DNA of 63,746 nt, the filler included, from Globobulimina sp. (Eukaryota): the NCBI GenBank assembly GCA_003354225.1. It is 23 parts of 23 records of this genome, joined end to end, with 100 filler letters (N's around TTAATTAATTAA, not from the genome) between each part and the next. Parts side by side here need not be neighbours in the genome. Positions count along the whole stretch, not along the records: positions 49,976 to 52,650 come from PIVH01005411.1; 22 more parts are not named here. One strand, 5' to 3'. The notes below the pieces were generated by a model that worked only from the letters and a program-made list of their open reading frames with translations, was not told where the DNA came from and made no database searches. Positions 15,050-60,063 of the stretch are shown here, one piece after another. The translations under genes were made by a program, and so were the position numbers. The number at the start of each line of letters is the position of its first letter. Positions within the stretch are counted from its first letter, which is position 1.

Positions 15050-15177
15050 AAGAATGACTGTCAGATCTTTATATTTACATTTCTTTATATCACGTCAATT
15101 GTCAGCTACTGTTTAACTTACTTAGAACGCGTCGACTGTTTCAAAAGGACAAATTAAGCGTGACATGTTGAGTTTTG

Positions 15178-16474
15178 ATGACTAAAACCACACAAGATTC
15201 AAGATTCAGAATGGCATCAGAACAGCTAGATATGATGTACAATTTTGTTCAATCCAATTTGAAAAACGTGGCTACAACATTGGATCTTTTACCTTTTATC
15301 AACGCTTTAATGACATTTAAAAATTTAAAAGTTCAGTTGTCAATGGCATTACATCGATTTTATAGTGAATCAAAAGCAGATGAGACAGCAAATGATAAAC
15401 ATGGTACAAAGTATAATGCGATCCAATCATTATTTTTTCAACTTCAACGACTTGGAAATGTGAAAAATGAATCACTCAAATCATCAAAATCATCGGTCTC
15501 ACTATTTAACGATGCCATTGTTGATAAACATTGTTTATCCTCGACTTCATGCATTGCATTACATCGTATTACCAAAGCATTATTATACTATGACAATATA
15601 TTAAATAAAGCATCTGTGAGAAATACACAAAGCGTTAATAAATTACTTTTAACGTATTTTAATGAGACAAATTATAAACATTTATTAAATGATTACCATC
15701 ACATTTGTTGTTATCATATAAATAAAAAAAATATAAATGAGTCAAATGATGAATTTGAATTAATTTACAACCAAATCATAAAATATGTGCATCCTTGTGA
15801 TGTTACAAAGTGTATGAAATTCAGAAGGAATCGGAGAATTCGCGAAGATGAAAATATTAAAATATTAAATTGCGACAATGATCTAAATACAAATTTTTAT
15901 GTAGACACTTTAGATTCCATTCATTGTTATTTCTTACATTCATTCGATATCGGTATGAGAATAAATCAAAATCAATTATTTGTTGATAATGACAGCAATA
16001 ATAAGAAAACAAAGAAAATAAAAGTGGACGATGATCAATTTTATACTGATACAAAACTCGAAAAATTAAAAAAAATTATAAATGAAAAATTATTACCATT
16101 AAGGAAACAGTATGTGATTAAAGGTGGACAAAATAAATATTTTTCAAATATGAATGACGAAGCAGGTATATCTACGAATAAATACACACAAACACACACA
16201 TTAAATATATACATTACATACAATTACAGAGACATCGTTGTTGCGCACATTGGCGCCACTTTGTAAAAACGTGTTTAACTCGGATAAACAAGGAAAGTTC
16301 GAGACGATTGTCTCGGAAATATTGCCAGATTTAAAAAGCAGACTCTTGGATATAATTAAATGGCTAATCAAATATATCCATGATGACTGCACTTTGCTTG
16401 TAAACTGTTGCACCATATTGTCTGAACAACTCCTGCTGAATGTATTGTTGATACATTCCCTGCAGTTATATTAG
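15178..16474 (+). CDS. Uncharacterised protein with a His/Cys module shared with 36100-37700; probable intron ~16167-16229
   Basis: Contains CIALHRI..LLYY, LLNDYHHI, CDVTKCMKFRRNRR and LDSIHCYFLHSFD. The last exon is inferred from a GTATAT..TACAG intron, so the 3' end is uncertain. Confidence 0.65.
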
Positions 16475-43541: not shown

Positions 43542-44325
43542 CTAATTCACGAATCCGATAACTTCACATTTATTATAATTTGTCGATATTCCGTACTTAT
43601 TCCAATCCTTCCGATTCACCAAATTATTATCAGCATCATAAGCTTCTGTCACACAAATATCGACATTAATTATCACCGGATTATTTTTATCCATATTTGC
43701 AGTGTTTATGACCAAATGTTTAGCTCTTCTTGCTCCCATATCATATACCCATTGACTCTTAATTTTAATGACATCATTCTTCACTTTCCATACAACGGTA
43801 TTGCCCTTTTTAGGAACATTCCGTCGCTCTGTTTTACAATATCTCAGCCTCACAGTTTTTATTTCATATCCTTTTCTGTTTCCAATTATATTTGTTGCAT
43901 ATTTTAATCTCACTGTAATATACGACACATTGATTGGCAATGACAATAATCGCAAAAAAACACAAAATCCGTCAAGCCGCACTGTCCCAATCAGAATCCA
44001 ATAACATTTGTTTCCAAACTTGGAGCTAAATACATTTCTTTGCTGGTAAACATTTTGTATCATCCATTTACATTTTACATTAATTGGCATTAAACCAATT
44101 GGATTTAATTCGCAGTACCTATAATTTGTATATTTTCTGTATTCAATTCTTATTAATTTAGCAAATAACTTTATTTGTGTCAGTTGATCTATAAAAGTAT
44201 TATTTGTTATATCGTTTTTGACACATACTGGCAATGCAGATTCTTTCTGGTCATGTTTTTTATGAAACCGTGCAATGTCAATATCCAATAACTTATTATT
44301 CTAGTATGTGATTTCATAATATAAC
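43542..44325 (-). CDS. Uncharacterised protein with a possible MATH/TRAF-like beta-sandwich (5' partial)
   Basis: The pattern VKCKWMIQN...FSSKF...FCVFLRLLSLPINVSYITV...VIINVDI is similar to the MATH-like region of 50278-52650. Confidence 0.5.
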
Positions 44326-49568: not shown

Positions 49569-50211
49569 ACTGTAGTTGATTTTAACTGGCATAGCACAGT
49601 ACATCAAAAAAATTTAATTCAAAAATTACAAATTTGAAAATTTTTAGACTTTAATCATTATCTGACGGTTTCATTTATGACTTTCTTCTGTCTTCGACTC
49701 AGAAGAAATTTTTACTTCTTCTAACAATGCAATCAAGTCATTTACTTCACTGACACCTCTTGCTGTTTTTTGCCGACACCAACAAATTTTGGGATTATAC
49801 TTTCCCGGACAAATCTTGTATTTAGGAGTTACTCTAAAATTTGGAAATTCCTTTTTTCGACCCATTGTTTGCAATNNNNNNNNNNNNNNNNNNNNNNNNN
49901 NNNNNNNNNNNNNNNNNNNTTAATTAATTAANNNNNNNNNNNNNNNNNNNNNNNNNNNNNNNNNNNNNNNNNNNNCCTTGCACTAAACTTAAAAAACTCT
50001 AGTCACCTCGTGAAAATCTTAAAATCAGTGGTACCATCTCACAAACGACAACTGTTTCGTCTCGTAACTCTCGTTGTGATATTATGTGATCTAGAAGTAT
50101 TTCTAGTCAATTCTAGAAAGTGGGCACATCAATCATTAATTAAAAAAAATAGCTATATATAAAACAGTAACATAACACACTCTCGTACTCAATATGAATC
50201 ATTTACACCTC

Positions 50212-50259
50212 TCTCGTAGTCCATATGAATAATATATATTATTCATATGGACTACGAGA
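50212..50259. repeat. Perfect 48-bp palindrome
   Basis: TCTCGTAGTCCATATGAATAATATATATTATTCATATGGACTACGAGA equals its own reverse complement. Confidence 0.95.
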
Positions 50260-50277
50260 CACACAACATATACATTT

Positions 50278-52650
50278 TTACGTTTCATTCAATTCATTGT
50301 GTGTATCACTTCCTAAGACAGCAGCAATAGATCTCATGGAGCCCTTCCACGGATTCTCTGATGGATGTTTGAATTGAGCTCTCTCATTTACATGATCCAA
50401 ATACACCAACATTCCATCTGAAGTATATCTTGTAGTCCATCCAGATGGTAACGGCTTAAGCATTACCTTTTTCTCTTCTTTTTCATCACATTCAGTACTC
50501 AAAAGTCGTGAACTGGGCATAGGAGTTCGTTGCAACATAGCGTCCGTGTAATAACTATCAATCTTATCACCAATAACATATTCTGAATTAGATACATCCC
50601 ACATACTCTTCTGCTCACTCTCCAAATCATGCGTCGACATCCCATCATCAAATGTGATTTTATCCCATGGAGATCTGGTCGACTGTGTCATATCCGTCTC
50701 AGTCTCACTGTATACACTAAATCCTGTATCCATACGAGAATGGTGTTTGCTCTCTTTATTTTTTAGCGCTGATTTCATCAAAAAATTACGATAATAAATG
50801 TTATACGATCCAGGCCTAGGTTCGGTATGCACTTTTTTGGATTTTGGTTCATTTTTCAAGCCAATAATGCCAATTGGACTTCCTACGTTGTTCATCATGG
50901 ATTTGTCAGATGGCGACATCACATTATATCCTTTATATGTTGCCAACACCTCACTTGCTTTCATGCCATGCGATAACATGGACTTTGAAAGCTCAGAGTA
51001 TTGGTTCCAAACACTTTGCGCACGAAACGTTTCTGATACAGAAGTATTGCACAAAGCAGTTGAATCGCCGCATGACTCCATAACAGCAGTTTGCTTGATT
51101 TTTGCCATAGATTCCGCTTCGTGGATTTCCCTGCTGTATGAATTGACGATGGCTAATGTTGTACTAGCTGGTAATTTTACATCCTGTTGTTGCAGTTGAG
51201 TGGATTTCTTAGTTTGCTTATCTTTGGTTTTAGTGTGCTCCATCAATGCACTAAACGCATACAACACTTTGTGTTCATCATATTGACGCAAAGCAGTGGC
51301 CAGGTTTTGATCGGCAGCATTTTTATATTGCATTGATACGATTTTAACGCCAATCCTCCAGGTAATTGAGGTTGAAGTTTGCAGCATTTTGTTGGAAAAT
51401 GCTTGAAATCCACAATATAATTTACCTTTATTTAACCATTGCGGGAGCATTGCATTTTGATAGATGTGTTTATGACCGGTGCCACCATCACATACTAAAT
51501 CATATTCTATTCTTACAGCTTGGATATGTTTGGGTAAAGTATGAATATCTAAATGCAAAAACATTGCACATTTTGCAGAGTCGTCTGAATATTTGTTGCA
51601 ACATTTGAGATGAAATTGAATTACATTTTGGCCTAACAAATATTGATAAAGTTTGCTATGAATATATTGTCTGGGACTTAAGCTAATAAATTGTTTGTAC
51701 GCATGGTTGTTAATAATCCATTCGAACTGTTGTACTGTATTAATATTAGCTAACTTTATATCAAAATGGTTGAAAAACTCAGCACAGCCCGACAATAAAC
51801 ATTTTAATTTGTTATGTTTGAGCTGGTTTAATTGCAAAGTATTTATCCATAACATTTTACAGTTATATTGTCGTTTCATTCTAGATATCATATTCTTGAA
51901 CAATGCAGCTATATATTTTGGAGGTGGTTTGGAAAATTGCTCGTCGTATTGTAACAAATCTGTTATTAATGTGTATAAATGAGCGTCAGTGTCTTTTTTG
52001 CAATTCATGATAAAATATCCATTGATTATCTGTTCAAACATTTGAAGGGCACAAATATATTTTTTATGCCATTCGCCATTGATGTAAATACCGACAATTT
52101 GCAAAGATGAGCCCATTATTAATATCGCATCCTTTTGCTTATTGTTAGTAATCAATGAATAATCAAAATACTTTGTTTCAGAGTGTGCTTTTAATTGTAA
52201 GATAATGCCGTTTTTATTATATGTGCATGTTTTATGTGAGCGTTGCAGAGTTAATGGGTATTCTATTTGTAATCTCATTGAATTAAATATTAACTGTTTT
52301 TCCAATGCACAATAAAAATAAACATTGCTGTTGTAATTGCTCTCAACGCTGTAAAACATACAGCTTTCATTTAGATATCGACGCCAATTTGCAAATTCAT
52401 TTTGTCTTTCAATATGATGCAAATGTAATTTAAATTTATTTGTTATTTGAGGGAAATCAGTGTATAATTTAAGTGATATTAAATGATTTATTGTTATTTC
52501 TTTACCTTTTGGAATATTGTGTTTATTATTATTAATACCAACATCATTTGCTCTCAATTTACATTTTTTTATTTTTATACATTGTTTATATAAATAATAA
52601 TATTCATTTTCGGACAATTTACAGATTTTATTGTTTAATCATTGGTTTTT
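50278..52650 (-). CDS. Multidomain protein: degenerate ADP-ribosyltransferase-like domain, MATH-like domain and C-terminal WW domain (5' partial)
   Basis: ART-like part: ITINHLISLKLYTDF...EFANWRRYL...FYCA...GIILQL..KYFDYS. MATH-like part: FEWIIN...FHLKC..CAMFLHL. WW: PLPSGWTTRYTSDGMLVYLDHVNERAQFKHP. Confidence 0.7.
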
Positions 52651-52842: not shown

Positions 52843-54702
52843 TCACAATTTAGATAGCAATTTTGGTGAAGTTTGTGGATTACAAATATAATTCAAAGGC
52901 ATAATCCTATAGTACCTTTGCTTCATTTTAACATCACCAAACAATTTATTATCATGAATCTCGCCGTTGATTAATCTCTGTTGTATATCACAAATATCTC
53001 TTGTTATTCCCATATTTAAATTTGAGTCTCTTTTTAATTTATACGCTGGATGCTGATCCACAAAATATCTCAACCATTTCGCATTGGTCCATATTGTGCC
53101 ATTTGCTCTGTTTTGTATAAATAATAAATACTCGTTTACTGTTTTTAATGTTTCCCCGCCATTACACCCAATCACCTTTAAATAGGATCGAATAATTGGT
53201 ACTAATCCGCGACATTCATTGGTTCCCAATAATATCTGCTCGATACTCAACCGTTCCATATTCAATTCGCTCCCAATATTATTGGATGAACAGGTCCTCC
53301 ACCAAAATCTCTCCGTATTTATGCTATCTCGCTTATGCGCCAAATGAAAATTTTCATCCACTTTACTTAGCGGAACATAATAATTCAAGCCATAATATAA
53401 TATCGCGCGGGAAGCTAAAGTTATAAATACGACCAACGCCGCATTCTCAAACTCTGTAAACTGTAGTTCCATGCTTCGAAATTCCACTCTCCAACCAATA
53501 TCAGAGCCAAATGGCGGCGGTTTAAAGCGCACATTTTGCCAATTTGTCGACTGAATCGTCTCAAAATGGTGAGTCGTTTTAGTATCGTCCAATTCAATTA
53601 AATGTGAAAATATTACTAACGGATCGCGTATAAATAAATGGCCGATATGCTTGGATAATAAATCATCGATTCCTTCTTTCTTACATCTATTATACGCATA
53701 TTCATCATACGTGATATCAATATCATTATAGATCTCTACATTGGATGTTAACCAATCACATTTGGATAGAAACGTATCAATGGTATCGTAGCGTGATTTT
53801 GCTGGAATATTCTGTTTTAATTCTCCACTGGTTCTATCATCCACAGATTGTGCAATCACTGTCCATCTACAATCAAAATCTGATATTTTCCCTTTTAAGA
53901 ATGGAGTGGAGGCAGACAACGCCATCATTATAGGCGTCAATACCGCCAATTGGTCGTATAAATGCCGCGCTTCATCAATCTCGCGACATTGATAAGTGCA
54001 TTGCAAGCAGCAATTGCCCATTCCAAAGGCCATGGCGTCCATAAATATGGAGTTCTCATGTTTTGGGGTGTTCAAATCACGAAATATAGGCACATGGATA
54101 TCAACGGGGCCACGTTCGCCTCGTCGCAAACGAATATTTTCGGTCAATGCTGCAAATCGGGGATGAGGATTGATCATAGCATCGGGGATAAATTGTGATT
54201 GTGCAATGGGTCCATGTGCTTTGTGAACATCATAGCAGCCCATCATTGGGAATGTAGATAATGTGCTTAAATATTCATTGTTATGCAATGATGATTCTAT
54301 TATTTTGCGTCGTTGATACATGTTTCGTTCAACTAACAATAAATCACAGCCAGAGTCGCCATATGGTTTAAAAGGTGTGGCTTCGATCATAAATGAACCG
54401 TATTCTGGATGTAAGATTATTTTGTCCATTGGGTCTAGAATTTTAGTATTTTTGTTTGATTTTTCTTGTGCTTGTGCTAGTATTTCGGTTGATCGTAATG
54501 ATAATTTTGCGAGTTTCTCGTTTGGTGGGGCATAAATTACTAAGTATTCCAATTCATCGCCCCATTTAAATGCATCGCAACAACGTCTTTTTTGTGAATT
54601 GTATAAATTAATAAACTGTTCCACTCCATGTTTCTTCACATAATCAATGTATTTTTTAGACTCGTGCCATTTCAATGGTTTGCCTTCTGTCAATAAGCCC
54701 AT
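52843..54702 (-). CDS. GCLC: Glutamate-cysteine ligase catalytic subunit (gamma-glutamylcysteine synthetase, eukaryotic type)
   Basis: Motifs MGLLTEGKPLKW, FKWGDELEY, HPEYGSFMIEATP, FMDAMAFGMGNCCLQ, SVDDRT, KSRYD, HLFIRDPLV, QSTNWQ..RFKPP and GWRVEFR. Confidence 0.97.
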   Translation of the reverse strand: MGLLTEGKPLKWHESKKYIDYVKKHGVEQFINLYNSQKRRCCDAFKWGDELEYLVIYAPPNEKLAKLSLRSTEILAQAQEKSNKNTKILDPMDKIILHPEYGSFMIEATPFKPYGDSGCDLLLVERNMYQRRKIIESSLHNNEYLSTLSTFPMMGCYDVHKAHGPIAQSQFIPDAMINPHPRFAALTENIRLRRGERGPVDIHVPIFRDLNTPKHENSIFMDAMAFGMGNCCLQCTYQCREIDEARHLYDQLAVLTPIMMALSASTPFLKGKISDFDCRWTVIAQSVDDRTSGELKQNIPAKSRYDTIDTFLSKCDWLTSNVEIYNDIDITYDEYAYNRCKKEGIDDLLSKHIGHLFIRDPLVIFSHLIELDDTKTTHHFETIQSTNWQNVRFKPPPFGSDIGWRVEFRSMELQFTEFENAALVVFITLASRAILYYGLNYYVPLSKVDENFHLAHKRDSINTERFWWRTCSSNNIGSELNMERLSIEQILLGTNECRGLVPIIRSYLKVIGCNGGETLKTVNEYLLFIQNRANGTIWTNAKWLRYFVDQHPAYKLKRDSNLNMGITRDICDIQQRLINGEIHDNKLFGDVKMKQRYYRIMPLNYICNPQTSPKLLSKL

Positions 54703-55005
54703 TTTATGTTAAATTAACACGACGTTCGCGTTATTAACTAGTGAGTAGTGACTTAAGTATCAAGAAACATTATCCTTGCACACAAAAAAACTGTTCATTT
54801 TATGAAACGATATTTGGAATATATCTGAAAAAATCATTCATGTATAATATAAAAATAGAAGTCATTATGTATAAAATAAAAAATCATCCCAAACAACAAA
54901 AAAATAGAAAAATCTATGCAAAGATTACATTTTGTATACAGTAATAAGAATATAATCATTGTGTATGATGCATAGATCATTGTGTATGATACAAATAATT
55001 AAATT

Positions 55006-55867: not shown

Positions 55868-57748
55868 TCACATGGAGTCACTGATTTTAGTAAAGGCAGA
55901 ATCAATTTCATCCGTTAATTTGCGAAAATGATTTTGTATGTCTTTTGGTTTCGCAGTAGGAAGAACATCCATTTTTGAATTGATAATTTTAATTAATACA
56001 TCTTCCGTATGTAACTTGATTTGATTCAAAGTAATTTTATGTTCATCGGAAGAATTATCAATTAATGATTTAGCATTTGTATAATAAGTGATAATCACCT
56101 TTAACATTCCAACAGTTTTTTCAAGCGGACACGTATAATCATACGATGTGTAGGCATTTTGTTGTAAAAAATCTTCCCGTAAAATGCGAGCAATTTCTAA
56201 TATTAATTTTTGATCCTCGGATAACGAATCTTTTCCAACTAACTGCACAATCTCTGACAAATCATTTTCTTGTTGGAGTATTAACTGTGATTGTTTGCGT
56301 AATGACGAATAATCGCTATCTTTCTCATTAAAAAAAGGTTCTAAGACTTGCATATATTTTGTAAACGATATTAGCCAATTCACAGAGGGAAAATGTTTTC
56401 TTTGCGCCAATTTCTTATCTAAGCCCCAAAACACTTGAACAATGTTTAAGGTGGCGGTTGTAACCGGATCAGCAAAATCGCCGCCGGGAGGCGACACCGC
56501 CCCAACAATGGTGACACTCCCTTCCCTGTACGGCGAACCTAAGCATTTGACCCGGCCCGCTCTCTCGTAAAATGCAGCTAATCGCGTAGCTAAATAGGCG
56601 GGATACCCACTATCGGCGGGCATCTCTCCTAAGCGGCCAGATATTTCTCGCAAGGCCTCCGCCCATCTGCTCGTCGAATCGGCCATCATCGACACATCCA
56701 TGCCTTGCTCGCGAAAATACTCCGCTAAGGTGATCCCGGTGTATATGGAGGCCTCTCTCGCCGCCACCGGCATATTGCTGGTGTTGGCCACCAAACAGGT
56801 TCGCTTCATTATGCCCACCTCTTTGCCCTGCGGTGTAATCATTGTTAACTCCGGGAAATCACGCAAAACCTCCGCCATTTCGTTGCCACGTTCACCGCAA
56901 CCGACATAAATCACGCAATCACTGTTACTATGCTTGGATAAGGACTGCGAAATTACGGTTTTGCCGCAGCCAAAGGCGCCCGGAATAGCACAGGTCCCGC
57001 CCTGACATGATGGGAATATCGCGTCCAACACCCTTTGCCCAGTTAATAGTGCACATTTTCCCGGTAATTTTTCAATGCATGGCCGTGGAAAGCGAACTGG
57101 CCAAAAATGGGTCATTGTCAAAGTGCACTTCTTTCCGGATTTAAAATGTTTAACCACCATAAGACATTTATCAATATTATATTTGCCATTTGGTGTAATA
57201 TCCACAATGGTTCCAGCTATTTTTGGTGGAACCATAATTTTGTGTTTTATAATTAATTCATTTTCATAGACGGTTCCAATCACATCGCCCGGCGATACGG
57301 TATAACCAATTTGTAATTTGTTATTTGTTGAATATTGCCATAAGTTACTTCTATTTAAGGCAGAGATTGTAATGCCACGTGGTATAAATACCGAAGAACC
57401 CGTGGTTTCGCGGGCAAATTTGGCAATATCTTCCAATGGACGTTGAATTCCATCAAATATATTATCCAAAATACCTGGCCCTAATTCGACAGACAATGAT
57501 TGTCGTGTTCGTGTAACTGGATCGCCAATGGTTAGGCCAGCGGTCTCTTCATAAACTTGTATAAATGCTTTCTTACCTTCAAGTTTAATTATTTCACCGA
57601 CCAGCAATTGTTTACCAACACGTACCAGTTCATACATAAATGCACCATACATCTGGTCAGCCACAACCAATGGTCCTGCTACACGTGAAATAAAACCACG
57701 ATCATCATCATCATCGTTTTGTTTTTTTTCCTCTTTTGATTGAGCCAT
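55868..57748 (-). CDS. ATP6V1A: V-type H+-ATPase catalytic subunit A (no intein, no intron)
   Basis: Motifs [33 protein letters not shown] (P-loop), [49 protein letters not shown] and [11 protein letters not shown]. Confidence 0.98.
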
Positions 57749-58298: not shown

Positions 58299-59434
58299 TT
58301 TGCCATATCATCGGCTATTTCATTGCCAATCTCATTATTATGCGCTCTCACCCAAATTAGGTGTATATCTATGTCAAAATCCTCTAAATCCATCATCATT
58401 TCATACAATTTCTTGACTTTGTTATAAATGTTTAAATTATCAATTTTATAAACGCCAGCAATCCATCTTACCACTGTTTCACTATCAATAATTAGACAGA
58501 GATGACTTGGAACTAATTCCGAGTCAATTTTATAAACTTCGTAGAAATATTGATACGCTGCGTTCAATCCTTTGATGGCTGCATCCAATTCACAGTGATC
58601 AATTGAGCTCCTTAATGCAGTCGGAGATGCACCAAAGAAATAGTCACTGTATTTGTTGTTATACGGCCCTTCGCTTTGTCGGTAATTCTTTCTTCTCAGA
58701 TCACTCAAATCCGCCTTTGTTAGATAATAATTTAGGTCACAAGACCAAAAGCCTGCGCCTCCAAATCCATCTTTGTTCGATCCATCGGAGAATAGTAACT
58801 GTATTAAATTCCAATTTACTTTCTTATCGTTCAGACTCTCATCATGATGTTTCTCTAAATTCTCAGCCCAATTCGTGACCCAATTTATATCAAATGATAT
58901 TTTTTGCCCATTCACATCTTCAATATGACTCTTTAAATTATTTGGTGTCTTCATAATTTTTAAATGGTACGATAACCGCTTTGGGACAATACTGAAATCG
59001 ACGTTTTTCATGTATTTCACGTCGGTACTTTTCAATTTTATCGCTGCGTCAAACAATTCATGAAATATGTGATATCTTTTTTTGATTTTCTTTCTGATAT
59101 TTACCGTTATAACCGATTTATCCATAAATTCATCGCTTTTATTATCTTCATCATCGACAAATATCCACGTCTCATCCAAATCGTTTCTGTATAACTTGTT
59201 ATCAATTTCAATCATATTTGCATCAAATGTTTCAACTCCGCTTATCTTAATTCCTTTATTTTCTTCTCTAAAATCATCATTTAAATCCAATCTGTCTTCA
59301 TTCCATATCTTCCAATACTTTTCGCTGATAATTTTACATAAAATATTAGATGACGGTGATCTTATAATCCTCGACCAATATGTTGACTTTTTCTGCATAA
59401 CTAAGTCATTAAAATCTATCTCTCCAATTTGCAC
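58299..59434 (-). mobile_element. 5'-truncated non-LTR retrotransposon fragment: RT-RNase H connection plus RNase HI domain
   Basis: LFSDGS...GAGF, CELDAAIKGL, IIDSETVV and IHLIWVRAHNNEIGNEIADDMAK retain all four RNase H acidic residues. The upstream YWSRIIR linker is typical of LINE ORF2, and the ORF has no ATG at its 5' edge. Confidence 0.8.
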
Positions 59435-60063
59435 TAAGCTATTAATTGATTTGATTCTGACTCTGACTCTATTAATATTTCTCGATTAATATTCCGATAT
59501 CGATTGATAATAATTATAAATAATGGCAATAATAATATGGGATAAAGTATTAAGGGAATAGATAATGCAAATTGCACAGAATTCATTAATTTGTAGATTC
59601 GATATGTAAATACGTTGTTGGACGCAGCAGCTATTGATATCATTGCAACATAGGCACTCATAACGAATCCATATTCGTTTTTATTAAAGAAATCCACTAT
59701 ATACACTTTTAAAGTAACATTCAGCAATTCATTGCCCATTCCAATGATAATTCGCCCAGCACAGAGTGTTAAATAATTTCGGAAACCTGAAATGGCCGAA
59801 ATACTTACTAAGACACCACCGAATATTGTTACAATCCAAGCAATAAAAAACGTTTTATTTAGGCCTATTTTATCGATTATAATGCCACAAAATAACAATA
59901 ACACTGCATTTGGCCAGGAATATAATGATTGTAATAGATTGTAATTCACCGCATTTATGTCATAATAGGAACTTAATTGATCTTGTATTGGGATTAATAT
60001 GTACCGATTTACAGTGTAACCGATTTCTATGAGACAAACAGCAATTAAGATCAGCCATTGCAT
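59434..60063 (-). pseudogene. MFS transporter (MFSD1-like) N-terminal half, truncated at the retroelement junction
   Basis: YNLLQSLYSWPNAVL..FCGIIIDKIG and GRIIIGMGNE are present, but there are only about 6 TMs. The stop codon directly abuts the RNase H-containing ORF. Confidence 0.65.

Follow-up and report, generated by a model that had tools for sequence, protein, structure and literature searches.

The window (the whole stretch of Globobulimina DNA analysed here, 63,746 nt) contains an open reading frame (ORF) that raises a question: what kind of protein, and what kind of family, is represented by a gene with the outline of an ADP-ribosyltransferase (ART) in which the active-site residues are substituted? 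An earlier note on this DNA had proposed a recurrent family with an ART-like domain, and all of the peptides that it quoted were located in this one ORF of 786 aa (Table 1). The host contig spans positions 49976-52650 (2,675 nt) and is joined to the other contigs of the window via N spacers. As the window strings together contigs of about 2,675 nt that are unrelated to one another, with N spacers between them, the neighbours are uninformative on gene context. The 5' end of the ORF is cut by the contig edge, and the reading frame begins within the ART domain. No overlapping contig carrying the missing 5' part was found in the Globobulimina assembly itself (the own assembly), and two loci considered as its source (L244 and L245) were rejected because both belong to other paralogues. 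A contig of run X2 covers the whole ORF without a frameshift and extends beyond its 5' end. The in-frame TGA near the contig end may be a contig-end error, a real nonsense change or unrelated sequence; TGA recoding was dropped, as the stops inside alignments were of all three kinds and mostly intron-like. Short stretches at positions 49976-50060 (repeat-like) and 52454-52498 were common to many other contigs in all four runs compared, out of ten listed. Elsewhere in the window, the ORFs at 52843-54708(-) and 55868-57748(-) were recognised by eye as the housekeeping proteins glutamate-cysteine ligase and V-ATPase subunit A, and an ORF at 58301-59485(-), with an RNase H-like end by eye, is probably a retroelement remnant.

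Table 1. Positions of the features in the window.
Feature	Position	Strand	Evidence or remark
ORF, 786 aa: ART-fold domain, helical extension, MATH, long tail, WW-like domain	50278..52638	-	5' end open
ARTC-type ADP-ribosyltransferase fold, residues 1-192, catalytically degenerate	52063..52638	-	AlphaFold2, Foldseek, VIA
alpha2/alpha3 region H52-H74 (H..LYT...F...H), His at the alpha-3 Arg position	52417..52485	-	profile alignment
beta-1 motif Y109-C110-A111; canonical [YFL]-R-x, family Y-[H/C/T]-G	52306..52314	-	
P128-L-T-L-Q132 at the STS motif; family P-x-S-T-[T/S]	52243..52257	-	
K169-D170-A171 at the ExE motif	52126..52134	-	same in X2 contig
Three-helix extension, residues 193-260, common to the family	51859..52062	-	
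MATH/TRAF domain, residues 302-439	51322..51735	-	AlphaFold2, Foldseek, VIA
Tail, residues 440-728, without family match; weakly colinear with P0009 tail	50455..51321	-	
WW-like domain, residues 730-759, Phe at the second Trp position	50362..50451	-	Pfam PF00397
In-frame TGA, 10-12 nt from contig end	52639..52641	-	
Second family member: PH domain, upstream helical domain and N-terminal ART helices	36321..37703	-	Pfam, family HMMs
ORF encoding the helical domain (His/Cys-bearing) usually found upstream of the family ART	15172..16263	+	upstream HMM, E 8.9e-30

ARTC enzymes are known mainly as bacterial toxins and a few vertebrate ecto-enzymes. The fold predicted for the N-terminal domain was that of an ART by AlphaFold2, Foldseek and VIA, as had been proposed, rather than an unrelated one. 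The AlphaFold2 model of residues 1-260 (27-sequence alignment) had a mean pLDDT of 89.9 and contained the split beta-sheet ART core with the alpha-lobe of the ARTC, cholera-toxin-like clade. The best VIA match was ART2.2 (1gxy; Z 9.8, rmsd 3.0, 163 aligned, 15% identity), followed by HopU1 (Z 9.4), 6drh_B (9.4) and XopAI (8.9). A Z of at least 8 was reached by 7 of 48,161 chains, all of ARTC type. ART2.2 was also the first Foldseek match (E 2.3e-3) and nearly all later rows were ARTC-fold chains; nothing was returned for the ART-domain model at E<=0.001, and the structural scores to ARTs were moderate. ESM Atlas features of residues 445-670 of P0010, an intact family member, scored 0.96 to ART clusters, and no usable match was obtained when the Atlas was queried with the Globobulimina ART-MATH-WW copy. 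Pfam ART models matched 4 of 27 family members at E<=0.1 (best 9.5e-5). For PF01129, with a curated cut-off of 22.3, P0069 was over (25.4 bits) and P0127 and L122 were just under, and there was no match for the ART-MATH-WW copy or for most family members. PDB sequence searches with family profiles gave no match in one search and two irrelevant matches in another, and NCBIfam gave a single stray match, in 1 of 30 family members.

The motif register was referred to an alignment of 11 PF01129-positive domains of the own assembly, in which there are 17 PF01129 matches. One of these reference domains (L034) aligned with the solved ART Vis via the beta-1 Arg and the STS motif, and weakly with the last Glu of C2-I. 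Profile-profile alignment of the family with the canonical ARTs of the same assembly (probability 96.9, E 1.8e-10) confirmed that the order of the motifs parallels the R-S-E core, as the earlier note had held. By this register C110 is at the beta-1 Arg, T130-L131-Q132 at STS, K169-D170-A171 at ExE, K70 at the alpha-3 Asn and H74 at the alpha-3 Arg; none of the R, STS and ExE of the ARTC R-S-E signature is kept in this copy.

The reported fusion to MATH and WW domains was substantiated for MATH and weakly for WW. The AlphaFold2 model of residues 258-445 (pLDDT 93.0) matched SPOP MATH with Foldseek (E 7.8e-7) and the TRAF-like domain of USP7 with VIA (Z 13.2, rmsd 2.8, 124 aligned), and a beta-sandwich of TRAF topology was present in the predicted structure of residues 302-439. 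A Pfam scan of the 786-aa protein gave no MATH match, and the assignment is therefore one of fold. The WW signature comprises two Trp and an aromatic doublet. The first Trp is kept here, and the PF00397 match (E 0.008, 16.6 bits) was below the Pfam cut-off of 26.9. The same variant, with Phe for the second Trp, ends P0009, a protein of another assembly with the same ART-MATH-tail-WW order. The tails of the two proteins, WW included, aligned at E 9e-9 with 18% identity, and no paralogue of the tail was found in the own assembly. P0009 was sister to this copy in the best tree, at a support (47/80) too low to establish sisterhood; its core is partly damaged, with the Ser and the last Glu kept. 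In one ORF of P0009, two tandem ART-MATH units were observed (residues 1-300 and 815-1613), the first retaining ExE and the second damaged and ending in the WW variant. A beta-rich ORF at 43545-44300(-) of the window, without Pfam match, is possibly another divergent MATH-like domain.

The family to which this domain belongs is very large, apparently undescribed and, judged from its named relatives, foraminiferal. Three single-protein searches of the own assembly gave 215, 514 and 562 candidates (127, 136 and 150 scored). The matches in these searches numbered 79, 142 and 156, far beyond chance, which established the recurrence of the family. Among the matches listed, it was present on at least 222 distinct contigs. 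The median nearest-neighbour identity of own-assembly members was 50%, with values above 90% in 9 of 191, so that most matches are true paralogues; the own assembly may contain more than one organism. In a public profile search, 4,776 clusters passed E<=0.001, and for 1,952 of them E was 1e-30 or lower; the best 150 were inspected. Names were available for 20 of the 30 proteins checked, and each of the 20 came from the EukProt set of Bolivina argentea or that of Nonionella stella. One cluster spanned both sets, and the species labels are therefore soft. Single-protein pattern scans of GTDB genomes, JGI metagenomes and viral contigs, which see close relatives only, gave no relative. These counts and the foraminiferal origin of all named relatives are concordant with the lineage expansion suggested previously.

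Among 79 own ORFs and another 79 proteins, the partner domains included PH, UBA, MYND, PDZ, CAP-Gly, C2/copine, kinase, EF-hand, SAM, FYVE, TPR and C1, most of the proteins being without a Pfam match. Shuffling onto PH, MATH and WW, another claim of the earlier note, is thus in agreement with the partners present in family members; it is from the partner domains alone that we infer a role in signalling. The second family member in the window matched Pfam PH (E 1.5e-13) and the family HMMs (E 1.3e-23 and 3e-19). Its helical start was recovered as described (E 3e-19), whereas the peptide FRNLAYWSR was not, as it lies in another frame and is missed by the family HMM. The upstream helical domain (about 170 aa), present in many members, has conserved Cys, Arg, Asp and His residues (C..C..R, LD..H...H) and no Pfam match, and is possibly metal-binding. 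A hydrophobic N-terminus was seen in 8 of 151 proteins by a crude hydropathy screen, which is not a signal-peptide prediction. The own assembly also contained 24 matches to the ADP-ribosylglycohydrolase family PF03747 (e.g. C98, C916, C11933, C2910), which are candidate erasers. Several loci had a particular structure. L245 (C6063) and L010 (C46167) overlap in translation, joining a CAP-Gly-like N-terminus (by eye) to an ART-subfamily gene; the family ORF at L124:2-1372(-) continues into a strong SSB match (E 2.2e-19), in a chimeric contig or a fusion; and in L243 (C7008), a paralogue from the subfamily and probably a pseudogene, well-aligned coding sequence is interrupted by two in-frame TGA.

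Whether the substitutions of this copy are shared by its relatives was addressed by a motif census. From 240 own loci, 237 unique domains were obtained, of which 163 were scorable; the other 74 had one of the seven sites interrupted by an intron or a contig end and were set aside. Both S-x-[S/T] and ExE were kept in 150 of the 163 own domains and in 157 of 170 scorable external domains (of 176). The remaining own domains kept S-x-[S/T] alone (6), ExE alone (2) or neither (5), and each Glu of ExE was 94-95% conserved in the family columns. As these samples favour well-conserved copies, dead copies are probably undercounted. Of the alternatives left by the earlier note, an ART or a pseudo-ART family, a mostly intact-looking family with a dead minority was thus found, and paralogues bearing STS and ExE were abundant. 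The beta-1 residue of the own domains (n=163) was His in 88, Cys in 42, Thr in 13, Arg in 7 and another in 13, with Gly next in 146; in external domains (n=170) it was His in 63, Cys in 39, Thr in 37, Ser in 10, Gln in 5, Arg in 5 and another in 11. The alpha-3 Arg was present in 133 of 163 own domains and a second, family-specific Arg in 135 of 163, and the alpha-3 Asn of the Y-(IN-LR) motif in 1 of 161. Two residues before STS, Pro was found in 153 of 161 domains, compared with a canonical aromatic, and the median spacing from beta-1 to STS was 17 residues, compared with 27-60 in the published pattern. Judged from the aligned domains, this is a family-wide departure from R-S-E that was missed in the earlier note. 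In a FastTree phylogeny of 291 domains (a quick tree, by which the ancestral state is not fixed), own and external proteins interleaved, with His widespread and Cys and Thr in clades. Arg was present in 10 of the 291 domains, with 4 changes, placed inside the family tree. The last Glu was lost in 13 of 291, with 9 parsimony changes (shuffled mean 12.8, minimum 10). In discrete dead copies, ExE was missing along with the alpha-3 Arg and the Ser.

The ART-MATH-WW copy is one of 4 of the 163 own-assembly domains that lack both the Ser and the last (catalytic) Glu. It belongs to the ART-MATH subfamily, whose other members typically have Y-[T/C]-G, P-[L/I/V]-S-T-T and ExE; a PH domain opens two of its own-assembly relatives. 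The losses specific to this copy are those of STS, ExE and the alpha-3 Arg, plus two small deletions in the ART domain, and its description as catalytically degenerate stands. The statement that every catalytic position is substituted was correct as to substitution but not as to decay at the Arg position, since Cys at beta-1 is typical of the family (42/163) and so is no sign of decay in this copy. The ART core was 34-44% identical to those of four intact subfamily members, which were 57-67% identical to P0010 over the same core. For MATH, the identity of the copy to intact members was 45-48%, and that of those members to P0010 was 47-52%; the helical extension and MATH of the copy were as conserved as they are among intact members. 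On these comparisons, the divergence of the copy is selective and focused on the catalytic core.

The ORF is under purifying selection. In run X2, 23 letters differ from the ORF; from the 21 listed in this one run, 12 differences were synonymous and 9 non-synonymous (pN/pS 0.19, binomial p 2e-4, or p 0.005 if 28% of changes are expected to be synonymous). In the ART region the figures were 4 versus 3 (p 0.03), and none of the 21 listed differences restored an ART motif. In run X6, 32 of 82 differing places were listed, with a synonymous to non-synonymous split of 17 to 15. The indels of the long X2, X6 and X7 contigs were of 6, 24 and net 6 nt, and the frame was kept.

Degenerate domains were also observed in other members. 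A degenerate domain precedes an intact one in 7 of the 13 external multi-domain proteins listed (P0007, P0008, P0019, P0020, P0023, P0094 and P0128), and the domains of the other 6 were intact or partly changed. In the own assembly, L147:1642-6133 (G000:C358) is a tandem protein with dead ART domain(s) ahead of an intact one, its two ORFs probably being joined by an intron. The dead domain of L147 was 67% identical to its counterpart in P0128, and the intact pair 65%. Dead domains are a recurrent feature, and their conservation can equal that of intact domains.

The reading that we favour, with a probability of roughly 0.6, is that the ORF encodes a non-catalytic pseudo-ART adaptor of the ART-MATH subfamily, within a lineage-expanded, probably active, non-canonical ARTC family. 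Typical members would be intracellular mono-ADP-ribosyltransferases using the retained Ser and ExE. Their acceptors would be Arg, as indicated by ExE under the rule in the available text of PMC3000352. With the beta-1 Arg replaced by His, Cys or Thr, contact with the NAD phosphates may fall to the two conserved helical arginines. The PH, UBA, MYND, FYVE, C2, SAM, kinase or MATH modules would direct each paralogue to its target, and the mark would be erased by ARH-family hydrolases. MATH ligands are short peptide motifs and WW ligands are proline-rich motifs. In the present copy, the ART scaffold may be retained as a binding surface with NAD turnover gone, while MATH and WW would recruit partners, the protein acting as a scaffold, decoy or regulator beside active paralogues. 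Catalysis in the family is favoured by the two Glu, which are conserved in hundreds of diverged paralogues and are lost, in discrete copies, together with the Ser and the alpha-3 Arg; the lack of the beta-1 Arg (7/163), of the alpha-3 Asn (1/161) and of the aromatic before STS makes activity on NAD uncertain. A complex prediction of this ART domain, the intact L002 domain and NAD, run without alignments, gave no support (score 0.01) and weighs in neither direction.

In an alternative that we consider unlikely, the family is catalytic but is not a protein-Arg transferase (a NAD glycohydrolase, a modifier of nucleic acids or small molecules, or an enzyme using another dinucleotide), this copy being a pseudoenzyme all the same. 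The pocket is remodelled (no beta-1 Arg, no alpha-3 Asn, Pro before STS, a short loop with a median of 17 residues against 27-60), and the changes are family-wide at positions with phosphate- or adenine-binding roles in the accessible portions of PMC3000352 and PMC6628389. ARTs without a good acceptor can, moreover, hydrolyse NAD, according to the available text of PMC10789625. This alternative is countered by the 94-95% retention of both Glu of ExE and by partner domains that are protein- and membrane-binding modules. It is more improbable that no member of the family is catalytic and that its members bind NAD, ADP-ribose or a partner, with Ser and ExE serving binding or structure. The beta-1 Arg is described as invariant in ARTC toxins in the available part of PMC6628389, and its loss looks crippling from a table row available in PMC3000352 ('R295A: 0; R->K: 1', read as per cent activity). 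A charge contact is not replaceable by Cys or Thr; however, the joint loss of ExE, alpha-3 Arg and Ser in discrete copies is expected if the rest are enzymes, and the Arg-bearing domains (10/291) are nested in the family tree. Least probable is that this copy is a decaying pseudogene, since the in-frame TGA, the stops inside well-aligned coding sequence of some paralogues (e.g. the two in L243) and the two small deletions are outweighed by 786 open codons in DNA of 33% GC, the low pN/pS, indels that keep frame in contigs up to about 3.5% diverged and a MATH domain as conserved as in intact members.

If the pseudo-ART adaptor reading is extended to the family, a foraminiferal intracellular ADP-ribosylation network of kinome scale can tentatively be imagined, although we would not yet bet on it. 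It would have several hundred ARTC-fold writers per genome, a new H/C/T-S-E site binding NAD without the 'invariant' Arg, aim provided by shuffled PH, UBA, MYND, MATH and kinase modules, erasure by expanded ARH hydrolases and regulation by repeatedly evolved, conserved pseudo-ARTs like the ART-MATH-WW protein. If true, ecologically important protists would possess a signalling or defence system that is large and for the most part unannotated. The one gene in the window is modest as a finding, and the main result is the family. Having retained Ser and ExE with the Arg exchanged for His, Cys or Thr, the family offers a natural test of the residues needed in ARTC catalysis, the beta-1 His recalls the PARP/diphtheria branch, and the matched active and dead domains are material for the study of pseudoenzymes.

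No description of the family was found in the full-text literature, and subscription papers (notably Aravind et al. 2015) and supplements could list it. It is not described in the available text of PMC12957317, 10.1101/2024.07.30.605764, PMC10789625, PMC3417536, PMC3000352 or PMC6628389. For ARTs in foraminifera or Reticulomyxa, the literature gave a PARP survey (PMC4245714, PARPs only in its available text) and a ubiquitin review, and for an 'H-S-E' ART the full-text literature gave nothing. Eukaryotes have recruited mono-ARTs several times (available text of PMC3417536), and ART families with partly non-conserved sites are reported in the accessible part of a Legionella survey, so that, as far as these sources go, both recruitment and pseudo-ARTs have precedents. 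The AACRNL Crinkler-like mARTs have a HYE-type HGT motif, a Crinkler N-terminus and a transposon context in the available text of PMC12957317, where foraminifera or Rhizaria are not mentioned; the present family combines an STS motif with the ARTC fold. Matches to the published pattern [YFL]-R-X(27,60)-[YF]-X-S-T-[SQT]-X(32,78)-[QE]-X-E numbered 5 among the 237 own domains and 3 among the 176 external ones, and each began at or near the alpha-3 Arg, not at beta-1.

The MATH/TRAF domains of USP7, SPOP and TRAFs resemble that of this protein with Z 11.2-13.2 (unrelated sandwiches <=7.4, Siah1 8.1) and differ in identity (10-16%) and in the lack of a Pfam MATH match here; known ones join peptidase, BTB or RING domains, whereas here MATH sits behind an ART fold. 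The canonical R-S-E ARTs of the same assembly (PF01129), linked by the profile match of 96.9, form separate, smaller groups, several of which keep the beta-1 Arg and others of which replace it (L035, L040, L041, L042). In the ARTC-like groups L035, L040, L041, L042, L038 and L039, the beta-1 motif was Y-T-G, Y-S-G or F-I/V-G, and L038 and L039 have ankyrin-like repeats by eye. The bacterial ExE-type ARTCs HopU1 (3u0j), 6drh_B, XopAI (6k94), ExoS (6gn0), C3 and C2/iota/VIP2 have the same fold (Z 7.4-9.4), the first three being tied with ART2.2 within 1 Z, and differ in sequence (7-16% identity, no PDB sequence match). C2-like binary toxins have a dead N-terminal ART domain before an intact one in one chain (available text of PMC6628389), an order shared by the seven external proteins named above; in the family, there is no sign of a binding or translocation component, dead copies have arisen several times, and this copy has MATH and WW. 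The best structural match was to vertebrate ARTCs (ART2.2; 1gxy, 1og4; PF01129), with the YT-motif alpha-lobe in common and, in typical foraminiferal members, an STS-like strand and ExE. Vertebrate ARTCs are few and GPI-anchored or secreted (available text of PMC10789625), whereas the foraminiferal family has hundreds of paralogues, cytosolic-type modules and a beta-1 Arg that is mostly absent.
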